19,664 nt of DNA from a virus (Monodnaviria; Loebvirae; Hofneiviricota; Faserviricetes; Tubulavirales; Inoviridae). The notes below the pieces were generated by a model that did no database searches, was not told where the DNA came from, and was given only the letters and a program-made list of their open reading frames with translations. Both the position numbers and the translations under genes were made by a program. Shown here piece by piece: positions 274-8,984 of the stretch; the first letter of the stretch is position 1; each line of letters begins with the position of its first letter. Location: IMG/VR virus record IMGVR_UViG_2529292909_000007, positions 1 through 19,664 of that record; one strand, given 5' to 3'.

Positions 274-456
274 TCAGGGCTGGGTCGGGTCTTTTGGGAG
301 CGGAGTTACCTGCGCTGTTTTACTGAGTTTTTCAGCTGCTGCGTCCTCAATTTTGCGGCGAACATAATTTCTGATGGCCTTATAACCACCACTCACCAGA
401 TATAACGCACATACTGCCGTGCAGAAATACAATAAAATAAGCTGTAAAAATGTCAT
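274..456 (-). CDS. small membrane protein (~60 aa): N-terminal hydrophobic helix, charged C-terminal tail
   Basis: Track ORF 274..468 starts at TTG; an internal ATG at 456-454 follows GGGAGGG. Translation MTFLQLILLYFCTAVCALYLVSGGYKAIRNYVRRK. No family recognised. Confidence 0.4.
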   Translation of the reverse strand: MTFLQLILLYFCTAVCALYLVSGGYKAIRNYVRRKIEDAAAEKLSKTAQVTPLPKDPTQP

Positions 457-471
457 TATCCCTCCCAATTA

Positions 472-498
472 TTGACATGGTGTTGACACCGGTAATAT
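472..498 (+). promoter_or_regulatory. candidate sigma70 promoter (tandem TTGACA hexamers, TAATAT -10-like)
   Basis: TTGACA at 472-477 and 483-488, TAATAT at 493-498; sits about 60 bp upstream of a plus-strand intrinsic terminator. Spacing is not ideal. Confidence 0.3.
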
Positions 499-552
499 CT
501 GTTAGGTAAAAAGGTGCACTGCATTTTTTGCTTTGGATATAACGATCTTTTT

Positions 553-594
553 GCCGCCGGTTTCTTGTTTTCCCTTACCGGCGGCATTTTTTTA
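553..594 (+). terminator. rho-independent terminator (plus strand)
   Basis: GC-rich 9 bp stem GCCGCCGGT (553-561) / ACCGGCGGC (577-585), 15 nt loop, then ATTTTTTTA (586-594). On the minus strand the hairpin is followed by an A-run, so it is unidirectional. Confidence 0.5.
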
Positions 595-600
595 TCCTGC

Positions 601-2655
601 TTACGCGTTATTCACTTCCACCACGATACTGTCAATCAGTACCGGGTAAGTCGCATTTTTAGTGATATCGGTCACGCGCAACTTGTCTGCCGTAAACGTG
701 CCGACCGGAGACTGCGACAGCATGAATGGTGTCCCGTCCTTACCATCAATGACCGGCGTCACCTCAATACTGTTGTTACCGGCAAAACGGAAGCCCAGCG
801 TATGCCATTCGTTATTAAATGCGCCGAATGACCCCAGCTTCGTGTTCTGCGCCGTGTTTCCTTTGTGATACATCACGTTAAGGTCTGTGGCATCGCTCTG
901 TACGTAGAACGATGCCAGCAGGTTATGACCGGCATTTCCTTCCAGAGTAACCCCTTGCGGCAGGGCAGAAACCGGCCAGTACAGCGCCAGTGCGTACTGA
1001 TTAGCCGTAAGCGCGCCATCGAGTTTAAAACGACAACTGACAAGACCACCTTTACCCAGCAGGTCCGCACCATTACCAGCATCATGCTCAAGGTACCAGG
1101 GGGCTCTTCCTGTTTCCTTGGTCAGTTTCATTGCCTTACCCCCGCTGGCTCCGGCATCATCCACGATTTGAGCCTTGCCACCTCCGGCAGCCCAACCCTG
1201 TGGTGTCAACCGTCCTTCAGACTCAGATGCCCGGTAAGCAAATAGCGTACTCATCGTCGTGGTGTCTGCGGGTGGCGTGGACGGTTTTGATGGTGTATCA
1301 GGTGACGGCTTCTCATCCGGTGGTGTCACGGTCTGCCCGCGCATCAGTTCAGCCGTGCGCCCTGCATGGAGCATAATAGCTGAGGCCAGACGGTCTGAAA
1401 TGACGCCCCTGCGTGCCCATGAGCTGAAATGGCTGTCACGCTGTGTCGAAACAAAACTGCCCTGGGTTCGGGATGCTGCACCGTAATACCCGACAGCCAC
1501 AATATCCGGGTCTTCCGCCGGAGCATTCGTTGGCGTGCTCTGTCCATTCTCATCCGTCAGGAACGGTACAAAGAAAATTTTCTGTGCTTCCTTGCCTTTG
1601 TAGCCACCGTATACTGCCTCATATTTATCGGTGCCAGCGTTTTTCCAGTAATACGTGGTATCACCGCAAATCCACGGCACCGTGGTGGCATTTCCACTCA
1701 CGCACTGCGCAGCAAGCGGAGCCAGGTCAGTTCTGAACTGCTGAACCATGGCCGTGAATAAACTATTATGCTGCTGGCTTCCTGAGGCAAGGTCTGCCTC
1801 TCCCTGCATCCAGACCACAGCCAGAAGTTTGTTTTTCGGGTTTTTCGCCAGCGCGACTTTGGTGCGGCTTACCAGGTCCTGATACAGAGGTTTACCGGCC
1901 CCCCAGCGTGAAGAATCAGCGGAAGCACCGCTGGCCTCACTGAATGAGCCGTCGGCTCCAGTGGTGAATGCTGACCCGCCACGACAACAGGGCACCAGAA
2001 GTATCCCGGCATTCTGTGGGATATAGGGAAGCAGTTTTTTGGCAATATGCAACCCCTGACCGACAGTCCCGTACTGGCCTTTTGCCAGATCAGCTTTCGG
2101 GTGGTTTATCCCGCTCATATCCTGAACATCATGCAGGCAGTGGTCTGCCGGAATGATGTCGTTGTATGTACACGACGTACCGTTGGGCGTTACCGTACTG
2201 CGGCGTGCCAGTTGCTTAATGCGTGGGTCCGGGCGGTCAAACGAATCCGGTAACGGCAGCCCCTCGCCGTAGGCCATGCCATTTGACTGACCCGCGAGAA
2301 TGACAACAAAGTAATATTCCGGCTCTGAACTGCTGCCATTCGTGCTACCGGAAGGCCCGGCGTTATCCGGTGCATTCCAGTCGGAGGGCGTGAGCGTTCC
2401 GGCCACGTCAGATGTGATTGGAATGATGCCAGTCACGCCTGAACTGGTGATTTCTGCACTGGGATTACCGGATACCGGCATTACCCATAATGGCTCTTTC
2501 GTGCTGAAGCGGATCACGCAGTCTGCGAAGGTGATCCCCCCTTTATTACCCGAAGGGCGGAAAGGGCTTTCAATAAATGCCACCGTGCCACCGGCAACCT
2601 TGACTGAAAACTCTCCGGGCATGGCGGAGAGCATTTTCCACTTGGAGTCTGACAT
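601..2655 (-). CDS. prophage NanS-p-like sialate O-acetylesterase (SGNH/SASA-domain protein), 684 aa
   Basis: Long ORF containing VVILAGQSNGMAYGEG (GQSN active-site motif of the SASA/DUF303 esterase family) with a Pro/Thr-rich linker and C-terminal beta-rich domain. Family assignment is from recalled motifs. Confidence 0.7.
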   Translation of the reverse strand: MSDSKWKMLSAMPGEFSVKVAGGTVAFIESPFRPSGNKGGITFADCVIRFSTKEPLWVMPVSGNPSAEITSSGVTGIIPITSDVAGTLTPSDWNAPDNAGPSGSTNGSSSEPEYYFVVILAGQSNGMAYGEGLPLPDSFDRPDPRIKQLARRSTVTPNGTSCTYNDIIPADHCLHDVQDMSGINHPKADLAKGQYGTVGQGLHIAKKLLPYIPQNAGILLVPCCRGGSAFTTGADGSFSEASGASADSSRWGAGKPLYQDLVSRTKVALAKNPKNKLLAVVWMQGEADLASGSQQHNSLFTAMVQQFRTDLAPLAAQCVSGNATTVPWICGDTTYYWKNAGTDKYEAVYGGYKGKEAQKIFFVPFLTDENGQSTPTNAPAEDPDIVAVGYYGAASRTQGSFVSTQRDSHFSSWARRGVISDRLASAIMLHAGRTAELMRGQTVTPPDEKPSPDTPSKPSTPPADTTTMSTLFAYRASESEGRLTPQGWAAGGGKAQIVDDAGASGGKAMKLTKETGRAPWYLEHDAGNGADLLGKGGLVSCRFKLDGALTANQYALALYWPVSALPQGVTLEGNAGHNLLASFYVQSDATDLNVMYHKGNTAQNTKLGSFGAFNNEWHTLGFRFAGNNSIEVTPVIDGKDGTPFMLSQSPVGTFTADKLRVTDITKNATYPVLIDSIVVEVNNA

Positions 2656-2740: not shown

Positions 2741-3313
2741 TCACGGTACTTTTGGTGACGGAGCTGGTGAGGCAGGAAAATAACGATAAAGGGTGGAAAG
2801 GCCAATATCAAATATCAGTGCGATTTGTTTACGGGACTCGCCATTAGCCAGCAAACGGGCGATTTGCTCCCGCTCTTTCTCTGTCAGTTTCTGAGGTCTG
2901 CCGCCATGACGCCCCTGAGCACGGGCAGCAGCAAGACCCGCGCGTGTACGTTCAATAATGAGTTCCCGCTCCATTTCCGCCAGCGCGCCCATTATATGGA
3001 AAAAGAAACGTCCCATGGGAGTGGATGTATCAATATTGTCCGTAATGCTGCGGAAGTTAACGCCGCGTTGCCGGAGTTCTTCTGTTAAAAGGACAAGGTG
3101 CTGCATACTGCGTCCAAGGCGATCCAGTTTCCAGACCAGCAGGGTATCCCCTGGCCGGAGTCGCTTTAATGCGCGTTTAAGTCCGGGACGCTCCCTTGTC
3201 TTACCGCTTATTCTGTCTTCGAAAAACAGCTCACATCCTGCACATTCCAGCGCATTTCTTTGTAGCGCCGTATTCTGGTCATTTGTTGACACCCTGATAT
3301 ACCCAATCAGCAT
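2741..3313 (-). CDS. serine DNA invertase, Gin/Pin/Hin/Cin family (190 aa)
   Basis: MLIGYIRVSTNDQNTALQRN...VWKLDRLGRSM...FFFHIMGALAEMERELIIERT is near-identical in pattern to Mu Gin / e14 Pin, with catalytic Ser in the YIRVST motif and a C-terminal HTH. Confidence 0.9.
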   Translation of the reverse strand: MLIGYIRVSTNDQNTALQRNALECAGCELFFEDRISGKTRERPGLKRALKRLRPGDTLLVWKLDRLGRSMQHLVLLTEELRQRGVNFRSITDNIDTSTPMGRFFFHIMGALAEMERELIIERTRAGLAAARAQGRHGGRPQKLTEKEREQIARLLANGESRKQIALIFDIGLSTLYRYFPASPAPSPKVP

Positions 3314-3378
3314 ACGATTTCCTTATTATAAAAAGCCGGAATTGTCGCATGAGGAATAAAACAGAGTTAATCCTGGCT

Positions 3379-3404
3379 TTCCTGAAAACCTCGGTTTACG
3401 GGAA
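3379..3404. other. left inversion crossover site (gix/hix-like 26 bp site)
   Basis: TTCCTGAAAACCTCGGTTTACGGGAA resembles Mu gixL (TTCCTGTAAACCGAGGTTTTGGATAA, recalled) and lies immediately next to the invertase gene. Confidence 0.7.
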
Positions 3405-3470
3405 ACGGTGAATAAGGCGGCGAATGCTCTGCCATCGGACGGCACCGCCGTTGCCGCGAATAGACTCGCC
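3391..3470. repeat. left arm of ~80 bp inverted repeat inside the invertible segment
   Basis: 3391-3470 matches the reverse complement of 4630-4709 with few mismatches; both encode ...[17 protein letters not shown]... Confidence 0.8.
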
Positions 3471-3752
3471 ACCCCAAGAAATATTAATGGGGTTCCCTTT
3501 GACGGGACGAAGGACATAAACATCACTTCTGGTATAACACAGCAGGATGCGGATTCCCGATATATCCAGGATATCAGGCTGGGAGCAGAGAACAGGCAGG
3601 TAATGTACGGTGGGGCATATTACTCTGCGTACGGTAATGTTATGGCAGGCCTGCAGATTGACAGTAAAGTTGATGCTTCAAACGATTTTATAGCATTCAG
3701 ACCCCTGCAAAAATTAGTCGGAGGTACATGGATTACGGTATCTCAGTTATAA
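3408..3752 (+). CDS. alternative tail-fibre C-terminal exon (silent in this orientation)
   Basis: Frame is open back to the crossover site; begins with the same IR-encoded peptide ([26 protein letters not shown]) as the expressed fibre, then diverges. Confidence 0.6.
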   Translation: MNKAANALPSDGTAVAANRLATPRNINGVPFDGTKDINITSGITQQDADSRYIQDIRLGAENRQVMYGGAYYSAYGNVMAGLQIDSKVDASNDFIAFRPLQKLVGGTWITVSQL

Positions 3753-3803
3753 ATAGTCAGTAAATAATATATTTTAAAACAGATTTATTTCCAGGAGGAT
3801 TTT

Positions 3804-4325
3804 ATGGAACTAAAAAATATAACCCGTTATTATCCTGAAAATATGCCATATGGTAATAATGTTCAGTATTTCCAGAGTGAAGATGGTAAGGATTTCTACG
3901 AATCCCTGCCATTATTCACCAAAAAATATAAACTTTGCATAACACCTGACAGCGGCGTTATCTGCTCAATATCACAGGACGCCTCGGCGCTGTATCCTGC
4001 GGGGTTTTCTGTGGTTGAGGTCGATGAACTCCCTGAAGGCACGGATATTTCAGGAAACTGGAAGTTTGATAATGGCATAATCTCCCGTATTCCGGTTAAC
4101 TACGCAAGAAAACTGGAAGCAATGCGCCAGTCATATCTTAATCAGGCATATGAAAAAATTAATGACTGGAGAACGGAGCTACAACTGGGCACCATCAGCG
4201 ATGAAGACAGAGCAGCACTTACCCAATGGATGGCATACATCAGTCAGGTGAAGAAAATGGAACTACCCGCCATTAAAACAGAAGCTGAATTTAACGCCAT
4301 TAAATGGCCTGAGCAGCCACAGTAA
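3804..4325 (+). CDS. tail fibre assembly protein (Tfa/U-like chaperone), 173 aa
   Basis: AGGAGG before the ATG; lies immediately downstream of the alternative fibre exon; C-terminal region resembles the Tfa family. Confidence 0.75.
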   Translation: MELKNITRYYPENMPYGNNVQYFQSEDGKDFYESLPLFTKKYKLCITPDSGVICSISQDASALYPAGFSVVEVDELPEGTDISGNWKFDNGIISRIPVNYARKLEAMRQSYLNQAYEKINDWRTELQLGTISDEDRAALTQWMAYISQVKKMELPAIKTEAEFNAIKWPEQPQ

Positions 4326-4328
4326 TAA

Positions 4329-4348
4329 AGAAGGCCGGAAGGCCTTCT
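4329..4348. terminator. hairpin between convergent genes, candidate bidirectional terminator
   Basis: Perfect 8 bp stem AGAAGGCC / GGCCTTCT with GGAA loop between the Tfa stop (4325) and the fibre stop (4357). Confidence 0.45.
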
Positions 4349-4356
4349 GAATATCA

Positions 4357-5238
4357 TTATATACTTGCAGCCGTCACCCATGCTCCATTTAACAGATACT
4401 GCAACGGCCGGTAATACACGCCGCCGACGTTATCTGCCGTATTCTTACCGACATCCTGTACTTTAATTCCGGTAAGAACATTGCCGCCCCCCAGATTCAG
4501 ATCCCAGCTTTCCCATGTTCCGGGCATATGTGCGGTCACCGACCCCAGTCTTATGGCGGTTACTGTTCCTGATGAGATAGTGATATCCTGCGTCCCGTCA
4601 AAGGGAACACCATTAATTGTGTGGGCATTTGCCAGCCTGTTCGCGGCAACGGCGGTGCCGTCCGATGGCAGGGCATTCGCCGCCCTGTTTACCGTTTCCC
4701 GTAAACCGACGTTATCGATAAAAGCCCCTTTATCCGGAATGTCTGCGCCGTTCTGCTCCCTGCGCAGGTAACGGTTATCACCTTCGCTTTTGCTGTAAAC
4801 ATCCAGATTATTACGGGCGGTTCCCTTATTCTCCAGGTCGGCGAGATTCTGATCCTTCGCCAGGGCATTAACGTCAGCGGGACCAAGACTGTTTTTTGTG
4901 GCAAGCGTCCCCAGACCAAGATAACCACGGGCCAGACGCTGGGCCTCCGCACCGGCATCAGCAATTTCTTTCAGGTTATTTTTCCGGGAAAAGGCATTCG
5001 CAGCGATAATGGCTTTAATGGACAGCGTAAGCTGGTTTAACTGCGCCTTATCCGGCTGAATACTGGCTTCAGCCAGAATATTCAGCAGTTCGGCCTGGAG
5101 AATATTCAGCCAGTCCTGACCAATCCAGCTGATACCTTTTTGTCCGTCACCTTCGGTAAACCAGGTGGTGGTATTACTCTGCGCCGGTGCCAGCGCAGGC
5201 ATATTCGCCACGCCGGAATTATTATCAACATGAAACAT
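4357..5238 (-). CDS. tail fibre protein (293 aa); constant N-terminal part outside, variable C-terminus inside the invertible segment
   Basis: N-terminus [10 protein letters not shown]...WFTEGDGQ is a tail-fibre-type N-terminus as recalled for Mu S-like fibres; the ORF crosses the right crossover site; GGAG RBS upstream. Confidence 0.75.
4630..4709. repeat. right arm of ~80 bp inverted repeat inside the invertible segment
   Basis: Reverse complement matches 3391-3470. Confidence 0.8.
4696..4721. other. right inversion crossover site (gix/hix-like)
   Basis: TTCCCGTAAACCGACGTTATCGATAA; its inner half is the reverse complement of the left site's inner half. Confidence 0.7.
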
Positions 5239-5378
5239 TAAATAGTCTCCTCTTCATGGCTGTTTGCATAAACGTAAATAAACGTCTGCCATGCAGGCTT
5301 ATAACGGTTCAGAATACATTCCAGCGCACCGCCTTCATAAATACGCAGCGGCGTGAGAATATCATCCAGCACATTCAT
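5238..5378 (-). CDS. small ORF (46 aa) whose stop overlaps the tail-fibre start (TAATG)
   Basis: Translation [46 protein letters not shown]. No clear SD; below the track's length cutoff. Confidence 0.25.
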
Positions 5379-5433
5379 ATTCCGGTAAATTCATTTTGTT
5401 ACCGCAGGATTGCATATTCATATAACACCTCAT

Positions 5434-5661
5434 TTAGCTGACTTGTTTCGCACCAACAGAACGGCATATTCCGCTGTAAACTTCTGTCGCACCTTCGCGA
5501 TCAAGTCCGGCAGATATCACCATTCGTGTGCGGTCATTAAATTCAAAAAGTAAATCGCCACATGCTTTATTTTCGGCCAGTGAAATCACCTTCACGTTAT
5601 CGAAATTAACCAGGTAAAAGCGTCCGTAAATATCAGGAATATTAAATACCGCCATAATCAC
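5434..5661 (-). CDS. hypothetical 75 aa protein directly downstream of the B-like gene (position of Mu kil)
   Basis: Start overlaps the B stop (ATGA/GTG at 5661-5658). Assignment is by position only; no sequence recognition. Confidence 0.4.
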   Translation of the reverse strand: MIMAVFNIPDIYGRFYLVNFDNVKVISLAENKACGDLLFEFNDRTRMVISAGLDREGATEVYSGICRSVGAKQVS

Positions 5662-6589
5662 ACCTGTGAGAGTAATTCAGGGTTGGTATAAACCTCTTTA
5701 AAGGCCGCATTAATATGTTTTTCTGTCAGCGCCGCGCCTTCACCGCTGGCGGTGAGCCACGCCTGGTTAAGCGTATGTGTCAGAACACGTAATGCTCCCG
5801 GCTTTTCAGCGATAGCCTGCATGACGGCCAGCTCGGCCTCACACTGATACCCCATGCCCTGGCAATGGCCAGCACATCCGCCTTTTTGGCCTTGCGAAGT
5901 TGTTTTGTACGGGCAAGACGGCTGAACAGGCGCGATAAATCATCAAAGGCGCGGCGTCCACCTTTAAACAATCCGCGCGGGTTACCAATAAGCACCATCC
6001 CGATCCCCGTGGCGTCCTGAATTGCCCGGAGTTGCTCCAGACCGTCAATACCAAGATGATCCGCCTCATCCACAATCACCAGTCCACGCGTTCCCGTCAG
6101 GCGACGGCGGATGGCGCGGGATAATGCCCCTTTGTTCGCGCGGGTGTAATCAATCCCCAGCGCATCGGCCAGCTCCAGCAGACACTCCGTGACGCTGGAG
6201 TGCGCGGGTGACAGGGTGATCATCCAGGTGTTTGGTTGCTCCTGGCAGTAATTACGGGCAGTGGCCGTTTTACCCACACCCGGTACGCCCACAATAACGT
6301 TAATACAGCCCATCAGGCGAACCGCCTGAAACAGTGCGCGCAGCTCCTGGACTGTCTGAGTTTCCACAAACTGCGGCGGTTCCGGCAGTGCGCTTTGTTT
6401 ATTCCAGTTCTCATACCAGGAGCGCAGGGAAGCAGCCACAGCGGCGTTATCGCCTTTATATTTCCCCTTGCGGAAAGCCGATAATGTGCCGTCGGAAATT
6501 CCCGCCTCTCTGGCGATGGCATACTGCGTCAGTACGCCGCCATCAATAAGTTCATCAATGGTCTTGATTACATCGTTTATATCGGTCAT
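5658..6589 (-). pseudogene. Mu B-like AAA+ transposition ATPase, split by an apparent -1 frameshift at C4 run 5850-5853
   Basis: Track ORF 5780..6589 carries Walker A GVPGVGKT and Walker B LVIVDEADHL. The C-terminal domain continues in ORF 5658..5855 (AEKPGALRVLTHTL), matching the recalled MuB C-terminus. One extra G/C in the run would give a single ~310 aa ORF. Confidence 0.8.
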
Positions 6590-6663
6590 ATTATTACCTC
6601 GCGTTTGTGTAGTTCCTTTGTTTAATCAAATAACCTGAGTCGCCGCTCGGGTTATTTTTTATT

Positions 6664-8751
6664 TCAGGCCAGAGGGTCATTTTCTTTTAATTTCGCTTCG
6701 AGCAACTGCAATCCCCGCTGGAAATTACGCTCGTATTCTTCATCAGGCTCATCATCAACGGCAGGTTGCTGAACGGTCACCGTATTACCCACAGGGCGGT
6801 ATATGTTTTCCAGCCAGGGCTCCTGCGGCTTGTGCTCCAGCACGTTGACAACCTCATCCTCGGCATCACGGATTTTTTCCTCTGCGCGTTTACGCATACC
6901 TTTAAGGCGTTGCTGCTGTTTGTAGTATTCCGCGCTGACCGGGAAGGCTTCGCGTTTATTGCCGTCCCATACCGCCTCGCAAATCACGCTGCCATCCGGG
7001 CGACGTACGGTAATTCGTTCGGCATCATGAATGTCATAGCTGATAAGCACCTTGCGGCCATGCTCATCACTCAGCTCGGGCGCGTAGTAAATATTATTCA
7101 GCCAGCGTATTTCACAGCGTCTTACAGGGCGTTTCACCATCGGCCGGAACATATCCCGCAGCTCAACATCGGACAGCCATTCAATTTCCGTGTCCTCTTC
7201 TGCCAGGCGTTTTTTTCTGAACTCCGCCGGGCTGTAATGCTTACCGTTCGGCTTCATGGGTAATTCATCGTGCGGCCGGTTGTTGTACCACTCAACACCG
7301 TCACGAATGGCATCAATCAGTTCAGACCAGGACGGTAAATCACGCATCGCTGACTGCTGCCGGGCGTTCAGCCGCTTACCCTGTTGCAGGGCATTAAATG
7401 CCGAGCGTAAATCGCGGTTGGTTTTGCGTAACGTCTCGCGATCTGCACCTTTTCCGAAATAGGTGCGGTATTTACGGGCTATGCGCATCGGTAATGTGCG
7501 GTTAAGCCGTTCGATAATGCCCCGTCCCTGCGGGTTACCGGCAATCCCGGTCGGGTGATTAATCCCCAGGCGCGGCAGGATCCCCACAACCTCCTTATCC
7601 AGGATGTCGGCGGTTTCCCCCGAGCCGTTATCCGAGTAATACAGAAACGGTTTGCCGTGATGGCGAATGCCGTGCTGTATGGCACCGGCTACAGCGAAAA
7701 CATTTTCAGCCAGATCAAGGCTCCAGCCCACCACAAAGCGCGTGCCACCGTCGATAACAAAGGTCACTTCCGGTGCGAATGGCCGCCCGTGAACCGGGTG
7801 CGCACATTTCAGCTTCATGCCGTGACCGTCACCAATCCAGACATAATTCACCGGCATTTTTGACCAGTCGCGGCGCGTGAATCCCTCAAGCTGGCGGTAT
7901 TCACTGCCGGTAACCCGTCCTTTTTGTTTCACCACTTCCGGCAGTTTCTTCATTGCGCGGCGAATGGTGTCATAAGACGGCATGATATCGAGCATATAAG
8001 GCTCATCAGCGTGCCGGTGCTGCCATTCGGCAACAAAATCCTCGTAAGCCTCGGTCATTGGTCGGCCGTTTGACTGGCGATACTGCGCCAGAAATTCGGG
8101 CAACCAGTTAATATCTTCGGCTTTTATTTCCTGGCGTTTACCTGGTGCCAGCAAAAGCAGGCGTTCAGCAGCGTTCTGTGCCTTATTAAAGGCCGCAATC
8201 CAGCGTTTCAGCGTGATTTCACTCAACACGCGACTGTTTCCCTTTCTGGCGTTCGCTATCTCAACCATTGCCACAATGCGCTCATCCAGTTGCGAGTGTG
8301 ACAGGCGGTCAACGATGAACCGGATAGCTTTAGCGCAGCTGAAACCGGGTTGTTGCGTGAATTTCAGCACCTCACTGACGATCGCAATGCGTGCGTCTGC
8401 CACCTGGCGCTGGTTTTCAGTCAGGGCATTGAGGCGTTCGACCATCAGTTGTGGTGATCCGCGATATGCCTCCACCGCATCAACCACGGCAGACGAGCGT
8501 CTGGCCTTTGTCACCACCGGAGCCGGTGATTCATCGGCTTTTTGCGTCATCAGTTGCAGGGCATAACGTTCGCGTAATGCCTGCTGTGTCACTTCAGGTA
8601 AACAGTCAATGCTGTATTCAAAACCTTTAGCGCCTTTCTTGCGGCGTCTGCTGGTTTCGCTGGTTGCATACTTCCTGATTGAATAGCGAACGCCTTGCTC
8701 CGTTCCCGGCATCCCCGGTAATCCAACCAGTTCTTTGACTGAAGCAAACAT
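6664..8751 (-). CDS. Mu-type DDE transposase (MuA-like), 695 aa
   Basis: Size and position immediately downstream of a Ner homologue and upstream of the B-like ATPase; long single ORF typical of MuA-family transposases. Confidence 0.85.
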   Translation of the reverse strand: MFASVKELVGLPGMPGTEQGVRYSIRKYATSETSRRRKKGAKGFEYSIDCLPEVTQQALRERYALQLMTQKADESPAPVVTKARRSSAVVDAVEAYRGSPQLMVERLNALTENQRQVADARIAIVSEVLKFTQQPGFSCAKAIRFIVDRLSHSQLDERIVAMVEIANARKGNSRVLSEITLKRWIAAFNKAQNAAERLLLLAPGKRQEIKAEDINWLPEFLAQYRQSNGRPMTEAYEDFVAEWQHRHADEPYMLDIMPSYDTIRRAMKKLPEVVKQKGRVTGSEYRQLEGFTRRDWSKMPVNYVWIGDGHGMKLKCAHPVHGRPFAPEVTFVIDGGTRFVVGWSLDLAENVFAVAGAIQHGIRHHGKPFLYYSDNGSGETADILDKEVVGILPRLGINHPTGIAGNPQGRGIIERLNRTLPMRIARKYRTYFGKGADRETLRKTNRDLRSAFNALQQGKRLNARQQSAMRDLPSWSELIDAIRDGVEWYNNRPHDELPMKPNGKHYSPAEFRKKRLAEEDTEIEWLSDVELRDMFRPMVKRPVRRCEIRWLNNIYYAPELSDEHGRKVLISYDIHDAERITVRRPDGSVICEAVWDGNKREAFPVSAEYYKQQQRLKGMRKRAEEKIRDAEDEVVNVLEHKPQEPWLENIYRPVGNTVTVQQPAVDDEPDEEYERNFQRGLQLLEAKLKENDPLA

Positions 8752-8753
8752 AA

Positions 8754-8984
8754 TTACGCGACCTTACGAATGTAGCGGCTGGGCCAAATCTCCTCGGGCG
8801 GCACCCCCAGGCATTCCGCGATAATCCCCTCATACTTGGGAACATGGCGGTATACCGCGTTGTACAGATTGTTCTGACCCACGCCAGCTTTACGGGCCAG
8901 CGCCCTCATGCTTCCTTCTCTGGCTCTGACTTCCCCCAAAATTCTTTGAGGATGCCAATCAGGCTTAACTTCATTTCTCGCCAT
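8754..8984 (-). CDS. ner: Ner-like DNA-binding regulator (76 aa)
   Basis: MARNEVKPDWHPQRILGEV...EEIWPSRY carries the DWH and IWPSRY motifs of Mu Ner / Nlp; divergent from the repressor. Confidence 0.85.
   Translation of the reverse strand: MARNEVKPDWHPQRILGEVRAREGSMRALARKAGVGQNNLYNAVYRHVPKYEGIIAECLGVPPEEIWPSRYIRKVA

Follow-up and report, generated by a model that had tools for sequence, protein, structure and literature searches.

The window analysed here is the whole 19,664-nucleotide stretch of IMG/VR record IMGVR_UViG_2529292909_000007, which is a Mu-like prophage remnant of Escherichia coli. On its minus strand, a gene for a SASA/NanS-p-type esterase is followed by a gene for the small protein DUF1378, and the gap between them carries, on the opposite strand, what we take to be a complete gene for a prophage-encoded small regulatory RNA (sRNA) of the Hfq type (positions 483–593, plus strand; probability about 0.85). 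The RNA would be the window's allele of EcOnc33, an sRNA of prophage Sp6 of E. coli O157:H7 Sakai. That EcOnc33 is associated with Hfq was already catalogued; the allele in a Mu-like remnant, the slot and promoter frame shared with other sRNAs, and arcA as a testable target are new here. Sequence features, homology, conservation, and the exact mapping of published reads come from the present analysis; papers on the homologue are the source for the binding of Hfq and RNase E, for the Northern band, and for the hybrid with arcA.

Promoter, terminator, and predicted RNA

The gap spans 457–600 (144 nt), from the annotated DUF1378 ATG at 456 to the esterase stop codon at 601–603. A first-pass annotation of this DNA had located the gap correctly between the esterase stop and the start of a small membrane-protein gene, and had given its length as 145 bp. 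The elements of the sRNA gene are as follows.

472–477, plus strand: upstream copy of TTGACA, within an 11-bp tandem duplication (TTGACATGGTG TTGACA)
483–488, plus strand: TTGACA, the −35 hexamer of the sRNA promoter, identical in all 15 distinct EcOnc33-type variants
507–512, plus strand: −10-like box TAAAAA, 18 nt past the −35 hexamer, with a 4/6 match to TATAAT (final T missing)
About 519–593, plus strand: predicted sRNA of about 75 nt, window allele of EcOnc33 (5′ end ± about 2 nt, 3′ end inside the U run)
519–539, plus strand: 5′ single-stranded seed CUGCAUUUUUUGCUUUGGAUA, the same region as the sRNA half in both EcOnc33–mRNA hybrids from crosslinking, ligation, and sequencing of hybrids (CLASH)
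546–551, plus strand: UCUUUU, a U-rich stretch immediately 5′ of the terminator hairpin, as read from the sequence
552–593, plus strand: Rho-independent terminator with a 10-bp G+C-rich stem (UGCCGCCGGU/ACCGGCGGCA), a 15-nt pyrimidine-rich loop, and a U7 tail

Both reading of the sequence and a pattern search place TTGACA on the plus strand at 472–477 and 483–488. The hexamer occurs 11 times in the window against 11.75 expected, which is chance level; the composite TTGACA-N17-18-TAAAA occurs once (483–511) against 0.04 expected. Conservation is given as mean pairwise identity per segment in an alignment (A2) of the 15 distinct EcOnc33-type variants. The hexamer at 483–488 has a segment identity of 1.00, and TAAAA(A/C) lies 17–18 nt downstream of it in 15/15 variants (segment identity 0.92). 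The first TTGACA is not conserved: it reads TTGATA in Sp6 and locus L010 and TTGGCA in L011, and is absent from L012, L161, and L195, which lack the 11-bp copy (an 11-bp deletion) yet retain TTGACA-N17/18-TAAAA. Because variants without the first hexamer keep this arrangement, the working −35 element is assigned to 483–488. The copy at 472–477 is probably not a working −35 element, and the tandem appearance in the window is, judging from the alignment, a local duplication. Combined with TAATAT at 493–498 across a 15-nt spacer, the first copy makes a possible weak alternative promoter, a pair found in the window allele only. The first-pass annotation had proposed tandem promoter-like TTGACA hexamers; both are present, but only the second is conserved in relatives.

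Two other features of this region are recorded separately. In the promoter spacer (489–506), the AAT of a TAAT at 493–496 is invariant in 15/15 variants and the first T is kept in at least 90%, and this conservation holds also in variants where TAAT cannot act as a −10 box; it could reflect a contact in the spacer, or a feature of the DUF1378 leader on the opposite strand. On the minus (mRNA) strand of 457–500, the two TTGACA copies fold into a small hairpin (GGUG-UCAA-CACC), and in the predicted fold nearby bases pair with the DUF1378 Shine–Dalgarno sequence GGGAGGG. The modelled hairpin could be a translational control element or could have arisen by chance.

The terminator is an inverted repeat with 10-nt arms at 552–561 (TGCCGCCGGT) and 577–586 (ACCGGCGGCA) that are 100% complementary across the 15-nt loop, and TTTTTTT follows directly at 587–593 on the plus strand. 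Read on the minus strand, the hairpin has AAAAAG after it in place of a U tract; therefore, the terminator works on the plus strand only. In accordance, the strong unidirectional terminator of the first-pass annotation is borne out: a G+C-rich stem-loop with a U run on the transcribed strand only, as in a Rho-independent terminator. It ends 7 nt short of the esterase stop codon on the other strand. Across the 15 variants, identity is 0.99 for the 5′ stem arm and 0.98 for the U tail, and the stem is unchanged in them save for G–U pairs and two loop-side mismatches (RNAalifold).

The RNA of 519–593 is predicted to comprise a mostly unpaired 5′ region (CUGCAUUUUUUGCUUUGGAUA), a weak central hairpin, UCUUUU, and the terminator hairpin with its U7 tail. 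Its folding energy is −23.0 kcal/mol (z = −4.6), and 0/200 shuffled sequences fold as well. A U-rich stretch followed by a hairpin and a U tail is the usual Hfq-binding module, and the same module preceded by a 5′ seed is the usual layout of an Hfq-dependent sRNA. The less conserved segments across the variants are the discriminator (0.55) and the seed, linker, and loop (about 0.75; overall range 0.55–0.77). In the seed, the window differs from Sp6 at one position, with U525 for G, and the U allele is common to L145, L194, L161, L195/196, and L012. No credible open reading frame (ORF) is found in the RNA region, the only ones being a GTG frame (514–831) and a TTG frame (533–649) that both cross the terminator. 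Two folding features were discarded: pairing of the −10 A run with the U tail in a fold of 505–597 is an artefact of the included promoter DNA, and the 5′ hairpins drawn by RNAalifold over promoter DNA are irrelevant.

The Sakai homologue and alternative readings

Between ECs_1527 and ECs_1528 in Sp6 lies a gap with 80.8% identity to that of the window, and blastn detects the homology with an E value of 9e-35. In the transcribed part, 66/82 aligned positions (80.5%) are identical to Sakai Sp6 EcOnc33, and the global alignment has a z of about 16, compared with about 4–5 for other sRNAs of this slot (3.9–4.8 for PasA/PasC). As in the window, EcOnc33 is antisense to its neighbours, with the stop of a SASA/NanS-p-type esterase gene on one side and the DUF1378 start on the other, and it has the same −35/−10 frame, a seed identical but for one base, the same terminator stem (GCCGCCGG/CCGGCGGC), and the U tail. 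The features by which EcOnc33 is recognized, namely the antisense position in the esterase/DUF1378 gap, homology in the transcribed region, and TTGACA-N17/18-TAAAA with an intrinsic terminator, are all found in the window. The two alleles differ in that the window has U at 525 for G, a loop 6–7 nt shorter, and a perfect upstream TTGACA duplicate. Their carriers differ as well, Sp6 being lambdoid and the window's carrier a Mu-like prophage remnant.

Early work indicated that EcOnc33 is bound by Hfq. Crosslinking and analysis of cDNAs (CRAC) with Hfq gave a peak at 1557089–1557136 on the minus strand of Sp6 in 5/5 datasets; a Rho-independent terminator is flagged close by, and Northern blotting shows a band of about 71 nt (Tree et al. 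2014, PMC4104026 Table S2). The coordinates of that paper refer to an older Sakai record and are shifted by +141 to NC_002695.2, as calibrated with AsxR and Esr41. One read that matches exactly fixes the shift: CCTGCATGTTTTGCTTTGGAT, a CLASH fragment published as 1557130–1557110, is found at 1557271–1557251. Once shifted, the Hfq peak is antisense within the ECs_1527/ECs_1528 gap and runs from just past the TAAAAA box to the 5′ terminator arm. RNase E-CLASH reads labelled EcOnc33 include an intramolecular hybrid joining both terminator arms and two sRNA–mRNA hybrids (Waters et al. 2017, PMC5286369), and all EcOnc33 CLASH fragments match the minus strand of the Sp6 locus (L006 3196–3272) exactly. 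The sRNA halves start at the Sp6 position aligned with 518–521 of the window, where a start 6–7 nt past the −10 box would be expected; therefore, the 5′ end of the window RNA is placed near 519. By homology, the window RNA is likely to be short and to bind Hfq and RNase E, properties known experimentally only from the Sakai homologue. The short plus-strand transcript of about 60–90 nt, from its own promoter to the terminator, that the first-pass annotation had suggested is supported by the Hfq binding, the Northern band, and the exact read mapping of EcOnc33. In the literature searched, EcOnc33 is catalogued only, without a name, an Rfam family, or a functional study; neither it nor EcOnc37, its counterpart in Sakai prophage Sp18, was found in the main texts, and EcOnc33 appears in supplementary tables only.

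The top-scored mRNA hybrid of EcOnc33 is with ECs5359 (5 unique reads, in replicate datasets and both orientations; false discovery rate 2.7e-4; PMC5286369). ECs_5359 is arcA, and the mRNA half of the hybrid covers the arcA Shine–Dalgarno sequence and start region. The EcOnc33 halves are CCTGCATGTTTTGCTTTGGAT with arcA and TGCATGTTTTGCTTTGGATA with ECs0890, both from the 5′ region. The predicted duplex of the Sp6 seed with arcA has an energy of −19.3 kcal/mol, and 0.4% of shuffled seeds do as well. For the window allele, arcA is a lead rather than a finding.

In the proposed mechanism, a sigma-70-type promoter (−35 at 483–488, 18-nt spacer, weak −10 at 507–512) would start the RNA near 519, and the terminator at 552–593 would halt transcription just before the esterase gene, which it would otherwise enter in antisense. 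The resulting RNA of about 75 nt, made up of an unpaired 5′ seed, the U-rich stretch, the terminator hairpin, and the U tail, most likely would bind Hfq and pair through its seed with host mRNAs in trans, the arcA start region being one candidate. The prophage, though degraded, could in this way adjust host gene expression during lysogeny. Because the sRNA gene sits within an apparent operon, the sRNA is also fully complementary to read-through transcripts, and a cis effect on the esterase and DUF1378 messages is possible.

Several observations weigh against this reading. The consensus scanner reports no promoter in the gap, where the −10 box lacks the usually conserved T at position 6, and it does not report the hairpin, as its loop limit is 8 nt; it missed both elements because the −10 box is without the final T and the loop is longer than 8 nt. 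No compensatory changes are found in the terminator by RNAalifold across the 15 variants, and because the stem is invariant, covariation is uninformative. For EcOnc33 itself, the entry for Hfq dependence of stability is blank (PMC4104026 Table S2), and the Northern band of about 71 nt is shorter than the predicted 81 nt, which would run from about 1557271 to about 1557191 on the minus strand of NC_002695.2. The edges of the Hfq-CRAC and CLASH clusters in Sp6 reach about 6–8 nt further upstream than the predicted start, so that the RNA could really begin nearer 510 or could have a longer precursor. The CLASH counts are small. The predicted duplex of the window seed with arcA has an energy of −14.8 kcal/mol, with 2.9% of shuffled seeds as good, and is weaker because G is changed to U at a position pairing within the arcA site. 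Finally, detection of the RNA is confined to the Sakai homologue, from which expression of the window allele, its exact start site, and its targets are extrapolated.

Four other explanations bear on the gap. It is scarcely credible that there is no gene at all, the hairpin being only a 3′ stabilizer or insulator of the esterase gene and the TTGACA hexamers being chance. This would fit the chance frequency of TTGACA, the lack of a promoter call from the scanner, and a stem free of covariation. However, on the esterase strand no U tract follows the hairpin, the composite promoter pattern is both rare and conserved across divergent RNA bodies, and detection of the homologous antisense RNA by Hfq CRAC, Northern blotting, and RNase E CLASH contradicts this explanation. 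A real RNA could, alternatively, come from elsewhere than TTGACA-N18-TAAAAA, either processed from a longer transcript started upstream or initiated at the 472–477/493–498 pair. Such an origin would fit the Sp6 read clusters about 6–8 nt upstream of the predicted start, the invariant AAT of the spacer TAAT (with the first T in at least 90% of variants), the presence of a plus-strand gene further upstream in intact prophages (L001 7317–7577), and the report that the 5′ end of PasA, an sRNA of enteropathogenic E. coli (EPEC), is produced when a longer transcript is cleaved (bioRxiv 10.64898/2026.05.13.724894). However, the alternative pair has a 15-nt spacer, reads TTGATA...TAATAC in Sp6, and is disrupted in L012, L161, and L195, three variants that retain TTGACA-N17-18-TAAAA; moreover, the CLASH sRNA halves begin where the N18 promoter predicts. 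We consider a different start quite unlikely. Also unlikely, if to be taken somewhat more seriously, is cis-antisense action or transcriptional interference, by which the convergent promoter and the RNA would cut or silence esterase read-through into DUF1378, DUF826, and downstream genes, the trans targets being incidental. The sRNA gene lies within the apparent operon and is fully complementary to it, its −35 hexamer sits 16 nt from the DUF1378 Shine–Dalgarno sequence on the other strand, the slot is kept in lambdoid late regions and Mu-like right ends, and the partners of PasA in RNA interaction by ligation and sequencing (RIL-seq) include the 3′ end of the neighbouring esterase mRNA. However, the homologue has documented Hfq binding and trans hybrids, and the RNA body is hypervariable between phages while its flanks are kept, which fits selection on diverse trans seeds better than a fixed cis task, one that any antisense RNA would serve. 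Cis and trans roles could occur together.

The first-pass annotation had also raised, as a speculation, a type I toxin–antitoxin layout, in which DUF1378 would be a small membrane toxin and the plus-strand RNA an antisense antitoxin acting on the upstream untranslated part, in the manner of IstR-1 and tisB. The likeness to tisB/istR-1 and hok/sok lies in a small hydrophobic protein gene beside an opposed small RNA gene, and complementarity to the upstream untranslated region recalls IstR-1. In particular, DUF1378 is a 60-residue protein whose N-terminal helix is hydrophobic, the sRNA has perfect complementarity to the esterase–DUF1378 intercistronic RNA, a promoter-plus-terminator frame is present in the gap of 29/30 distinct DUF1378 loci of IMG/VR, and sense-strand RNA of the equivalent Sp18 gap is seen in RNase E CLASH. 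However, the complementarity spans −62 to −137 from the DUF1378 ATG and stops 51 nt upstream of the Shine–Dalgarno sequence, leaving this and the coding region uncovered, so that, in contrast to type I systems, neither the ribosome site nor a known control region is paired; a standby-site mode is possible. The consensus scanner finds no promoter-like site for a separate DUF1378 message in the gap. Joint inheritance is likewise not observed. PasA and PasC, both validated sRNAs, hold the same slot in prophages PP2 and PP5 of EPEC E2348/69, where DUF1378 was not found (tblastn, two loci), and the sRNA cassette co-varies and recombines with the esterase 3′ end, not with DUF1378. The window and Sp6 are 91% identical over the last 300 nt of the esterase gene, 81% over the gap, and 69.5% over DUF1378, whereas the window and Sp18 are 80% identical over DUF1378 and 48% over the gap; therefore, the sRNA cassette moves together with the esterase end. 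The Pfam and PHROG families that DUF1378 matches are all of unknown function, and it has no match to a toxin or defence family (NCBIfam, PADLOC). The homologue of the RNA binds Hfq and pairs with unrelated host mRNAs, and its relatives behave as trans-acting clients of Hfq and RNase E. With no overlap of the start site, slot sRNAs that lack DUF1378, co-variation with the esterase, and no toxin family, a toxin–antitoxin pair is very improbable, and an Hfq-type sRNA acting in trans remains the preferred reading.

Prophage context and distribution of the slot

The genes flanking the gap are both on the minus strand.

274–456, minus strand: DUF1378 gene, 60 aa, N-terminal hydrophobic helix (Pfam PF07125, E 9e-32), with Shine–Dalgarno sequence GGGAGGG at 461–467
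601–2655, minus strand: SASA/DUF6645 carbohydrate esterase gene (NanS-p-like), 684 aa (Pfam PF03629 and PF20350; RefSeq), convergent with the sRNA gene

A stretch of 461 bases around the gap has 100% identical counterparts in several complete E. coli chromosomes. In strain JE86-ST05, which carries this allele at 810209–810352 of NZ_AP022815, the locus is part of a Mu-like prophage with the minus-strand order gin-type invertase, DUF6645 esterase, gap, DUF1378, DUF826, com, and mom. The gap is unannotated in the RefSeq records of every genome checked, and DUF1378 falls in PHROG 494, of unknown function. Among 5,426 complete E. coli genomes, 357 match the gap sequence by itself, 21 of them at ≥99% and most others at about 81%. 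This latter class is the late region of an O157:H7 lambdoid prophage with the order Q, TerB, DUF3927, SASA esterase, gap, DUF1378, DUF826, holin, YdfR, and lysozyme; in Sakai it is Sp6, with the gap between ECs_1527 and ECs_1528. The Mu-like Sakai prophage Sp18 has the window's gene order (invertase, ECs_4993, gap, ECs_4994) with a different gap sequence.

Eighty IMG/VR loci encoding DUF1378 were collected, and their upstream gaps represent 30 distinct sequences. A −35-like hexamer 17–18 nt before TAAAA and a hairpin with a T run touching the esterase stop are present in 29 of the 30 (L149, L158, and L192 judged by eye). The hexamers are mostly TTGAC[AT], with TTGACG once and TTTACT once, and the RNA bodies within the gaps are of several unrelated types. 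TTGAC(A/T/G) is also found in the otherwise unrelated Sp18-, Sp5-, PasA-, and PasC-type gaps. A scan of genome contigs for DUF1378 gave zero confirmed loci, a megablast search against phage genomes gave a partial esterase match only, and a scan of IMG/VR for the seed pattern gave mostly unrelated AT-rich contigs and had to be filtered by BLAST.

A wider proposal, which we regard as doubtful, is that the gap 3′ of phage sialate-esterase genes is a modular seed-swap cassette. A fixed promoter and terminator would enclose exchangeable bodies (EcOnc33, EcOnc37, PasA/PasC, and the Sp5 type) and would pass from lambdoid to Mu-like phages, or the reverse, along with the C-terminal domain of the esterase, and the EcOnc33 branch, including the window allele, would repress arcA translation. 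If this is true, a prophage remnant would still rewire host respiration through arcA, a global aerobic/anaerobic regulator, and if the arcA interaction holds, the sRNA would link prophage carriage to respiration control in the gut. An unannotated gap becomes a likely regulatory RNA gene, and the esterase-adjacent slot is seen to be present also in Mu-like prophages and to survive in a heavily deleted one. A covariance model of the EcOnc33 family, which is missing from Rfam, would be easy to build.

Other observations concern the prophage itself. The module of esterase, antisense sRNA, DUF1378, and DUF826 (274–2655) is common to lambdoid late regions and Mu-like right ends, and it is mosaic, with identity to Sp6 versus Sp18 switching between the sRNA promoter and the DUF1378 gene. 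The prophage is a deletion remnant with a junction near 5386 (within 3300–10000 of the window), at which the right-end module (DUF826, DUF1378, esterase, invertase, tail-fibre segment, and a 293-aa ORF) is joined directly to the early region, with MuB-like (5780–6589), MuA-like (6664–8751), and helix-turn-helix repressor-like (9168–9713) ORFs. The two parts are about 32 kb apart in intact relatives, and the junction was not found in any complete E. coli genome of the collection. The gin-type serine invertase gene (2741–3313, minus strand) adjoins opposed tail-fibre and assembly ORFs (3408–3752 and 3804–4325, plus strand), a layout as in the invertible host-range segment of phage Mu. A 382-aa ORF at 10319–11467 (minus strand) lies about 600 bases past the last identified prophage gene, the repressor-like ORF at 9168–9713. 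Its match to the fimbrial usher profile is confined to the C-terminal half (PF00577 286–549 of 549, and PapC_C); it looks like a truncated usher gene and is possibly the insertion target. In O157 lambdoid prophages, STnc100 (RF02076, 94 bits) lies upstream of the esterase (L006 942–1108; L004 6226–6392). At gathering thresholds Rfam detects no family in the window, and so no STnc100 counterpart, and no slot sRNA in the homologous gaps.

Comparison with other small RNAs

EcOnc37 of Sp18 (5077340–5077410, minus strand, 5/5 Hfq-CRAC datasets, with a terminator; PMC4104026 Table S2) is the closest in setting. Its CLASH fragments match the Sp18 gap exactly, and its Mu-like prophage has the order gin-like invertase, esterase, antisense sRNA, DUF1378, DUF826, and com/mom. 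The frame is TTGACT-N18-TAAAAA, with the terminator beside the esterase stop. It differs in its RNA body, which is unrelated (48% identity over the gap) and longer, at about 95 nt, with one additional hairpin.

PasA and PasC of EPEC E2348/69 (PP2 and PP5) are antisense sRNAs directly 3′ of a SASA esterase gene, with a TTGACA −35 element and a terminator touching the esterase stop, as does the 3′ end of PasC; the window RNA occupies the same slot. Their abundance is reported to be Hfq-dependent, and their trans partners are numerous (Pearl Mizrahi et al. 2021, PMC8550237; Zhu, Shabalina and Storz 2026 preprint). They differ in that they are not alignable with the window RNA beyond the shared ends, the window RNA lacking their GCCAGC-type seed and their terminator, whose stem is GCCAGCG/CGCTGGC; the next gene is a holin gene or an insertion sequence (IS) element, not DUF1378. 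In PP2 (L002 2480–2730, minus strand), two tandem promoter-plus-terminator units lie antisense to the esterase end, PasA being the distal one and an unnamed proximal one touching the stop. Among CLASH fragments, Sakai EcOnc51 (Sp12) resembles the proximal PP2 unit and EcOnc35 (Sp4) resembles PasC; therefore, the slot family seems larger than any one paper describes.

Other sRNAs resemble the window RNA in more general ways. Esr41 (RF02676, Sakai SpLE1) is likewise a short Hfq-type sRNA of enterohaemorrhagic E. coli (EHEC) accessory DNA, and a permissive Rfam search matches it weakly at 513–595, over CAUUUU and the terminator; it lies in another island with other neighbours, and identity is rejected at 22.2 bits and E 0.089 (gathering score 102; 108.6 bits for genuine Esr41). 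AsxR and AgvB (Tree et al. 2014) are convergent, very short, Hfq-bound sRNAs of prophage morons, conserved in their 3′ parts and variable in their 5′ seeds. They are encoded at the opposite end of the esterase gene, between it and the moron (stx), with AsxR at L008 2631–2682, and are rejected as the same RNA, with no sequence similarity and no Rfam hit in the window. HnrS, a characterized phage sRNA, corresponds to EcOnc10-12, a different RNA.

One promoter-plus-terminator frame thus surrounds unrelated bodies in the Sp18 (EcOnc37), Sp5, PasA, and PasC types, and EcOnc33, EcOnc37, and PasA/PasC, three separately described sets of sRNAs from pathogenic E. coli, are linked by one slot and one promoter frame.

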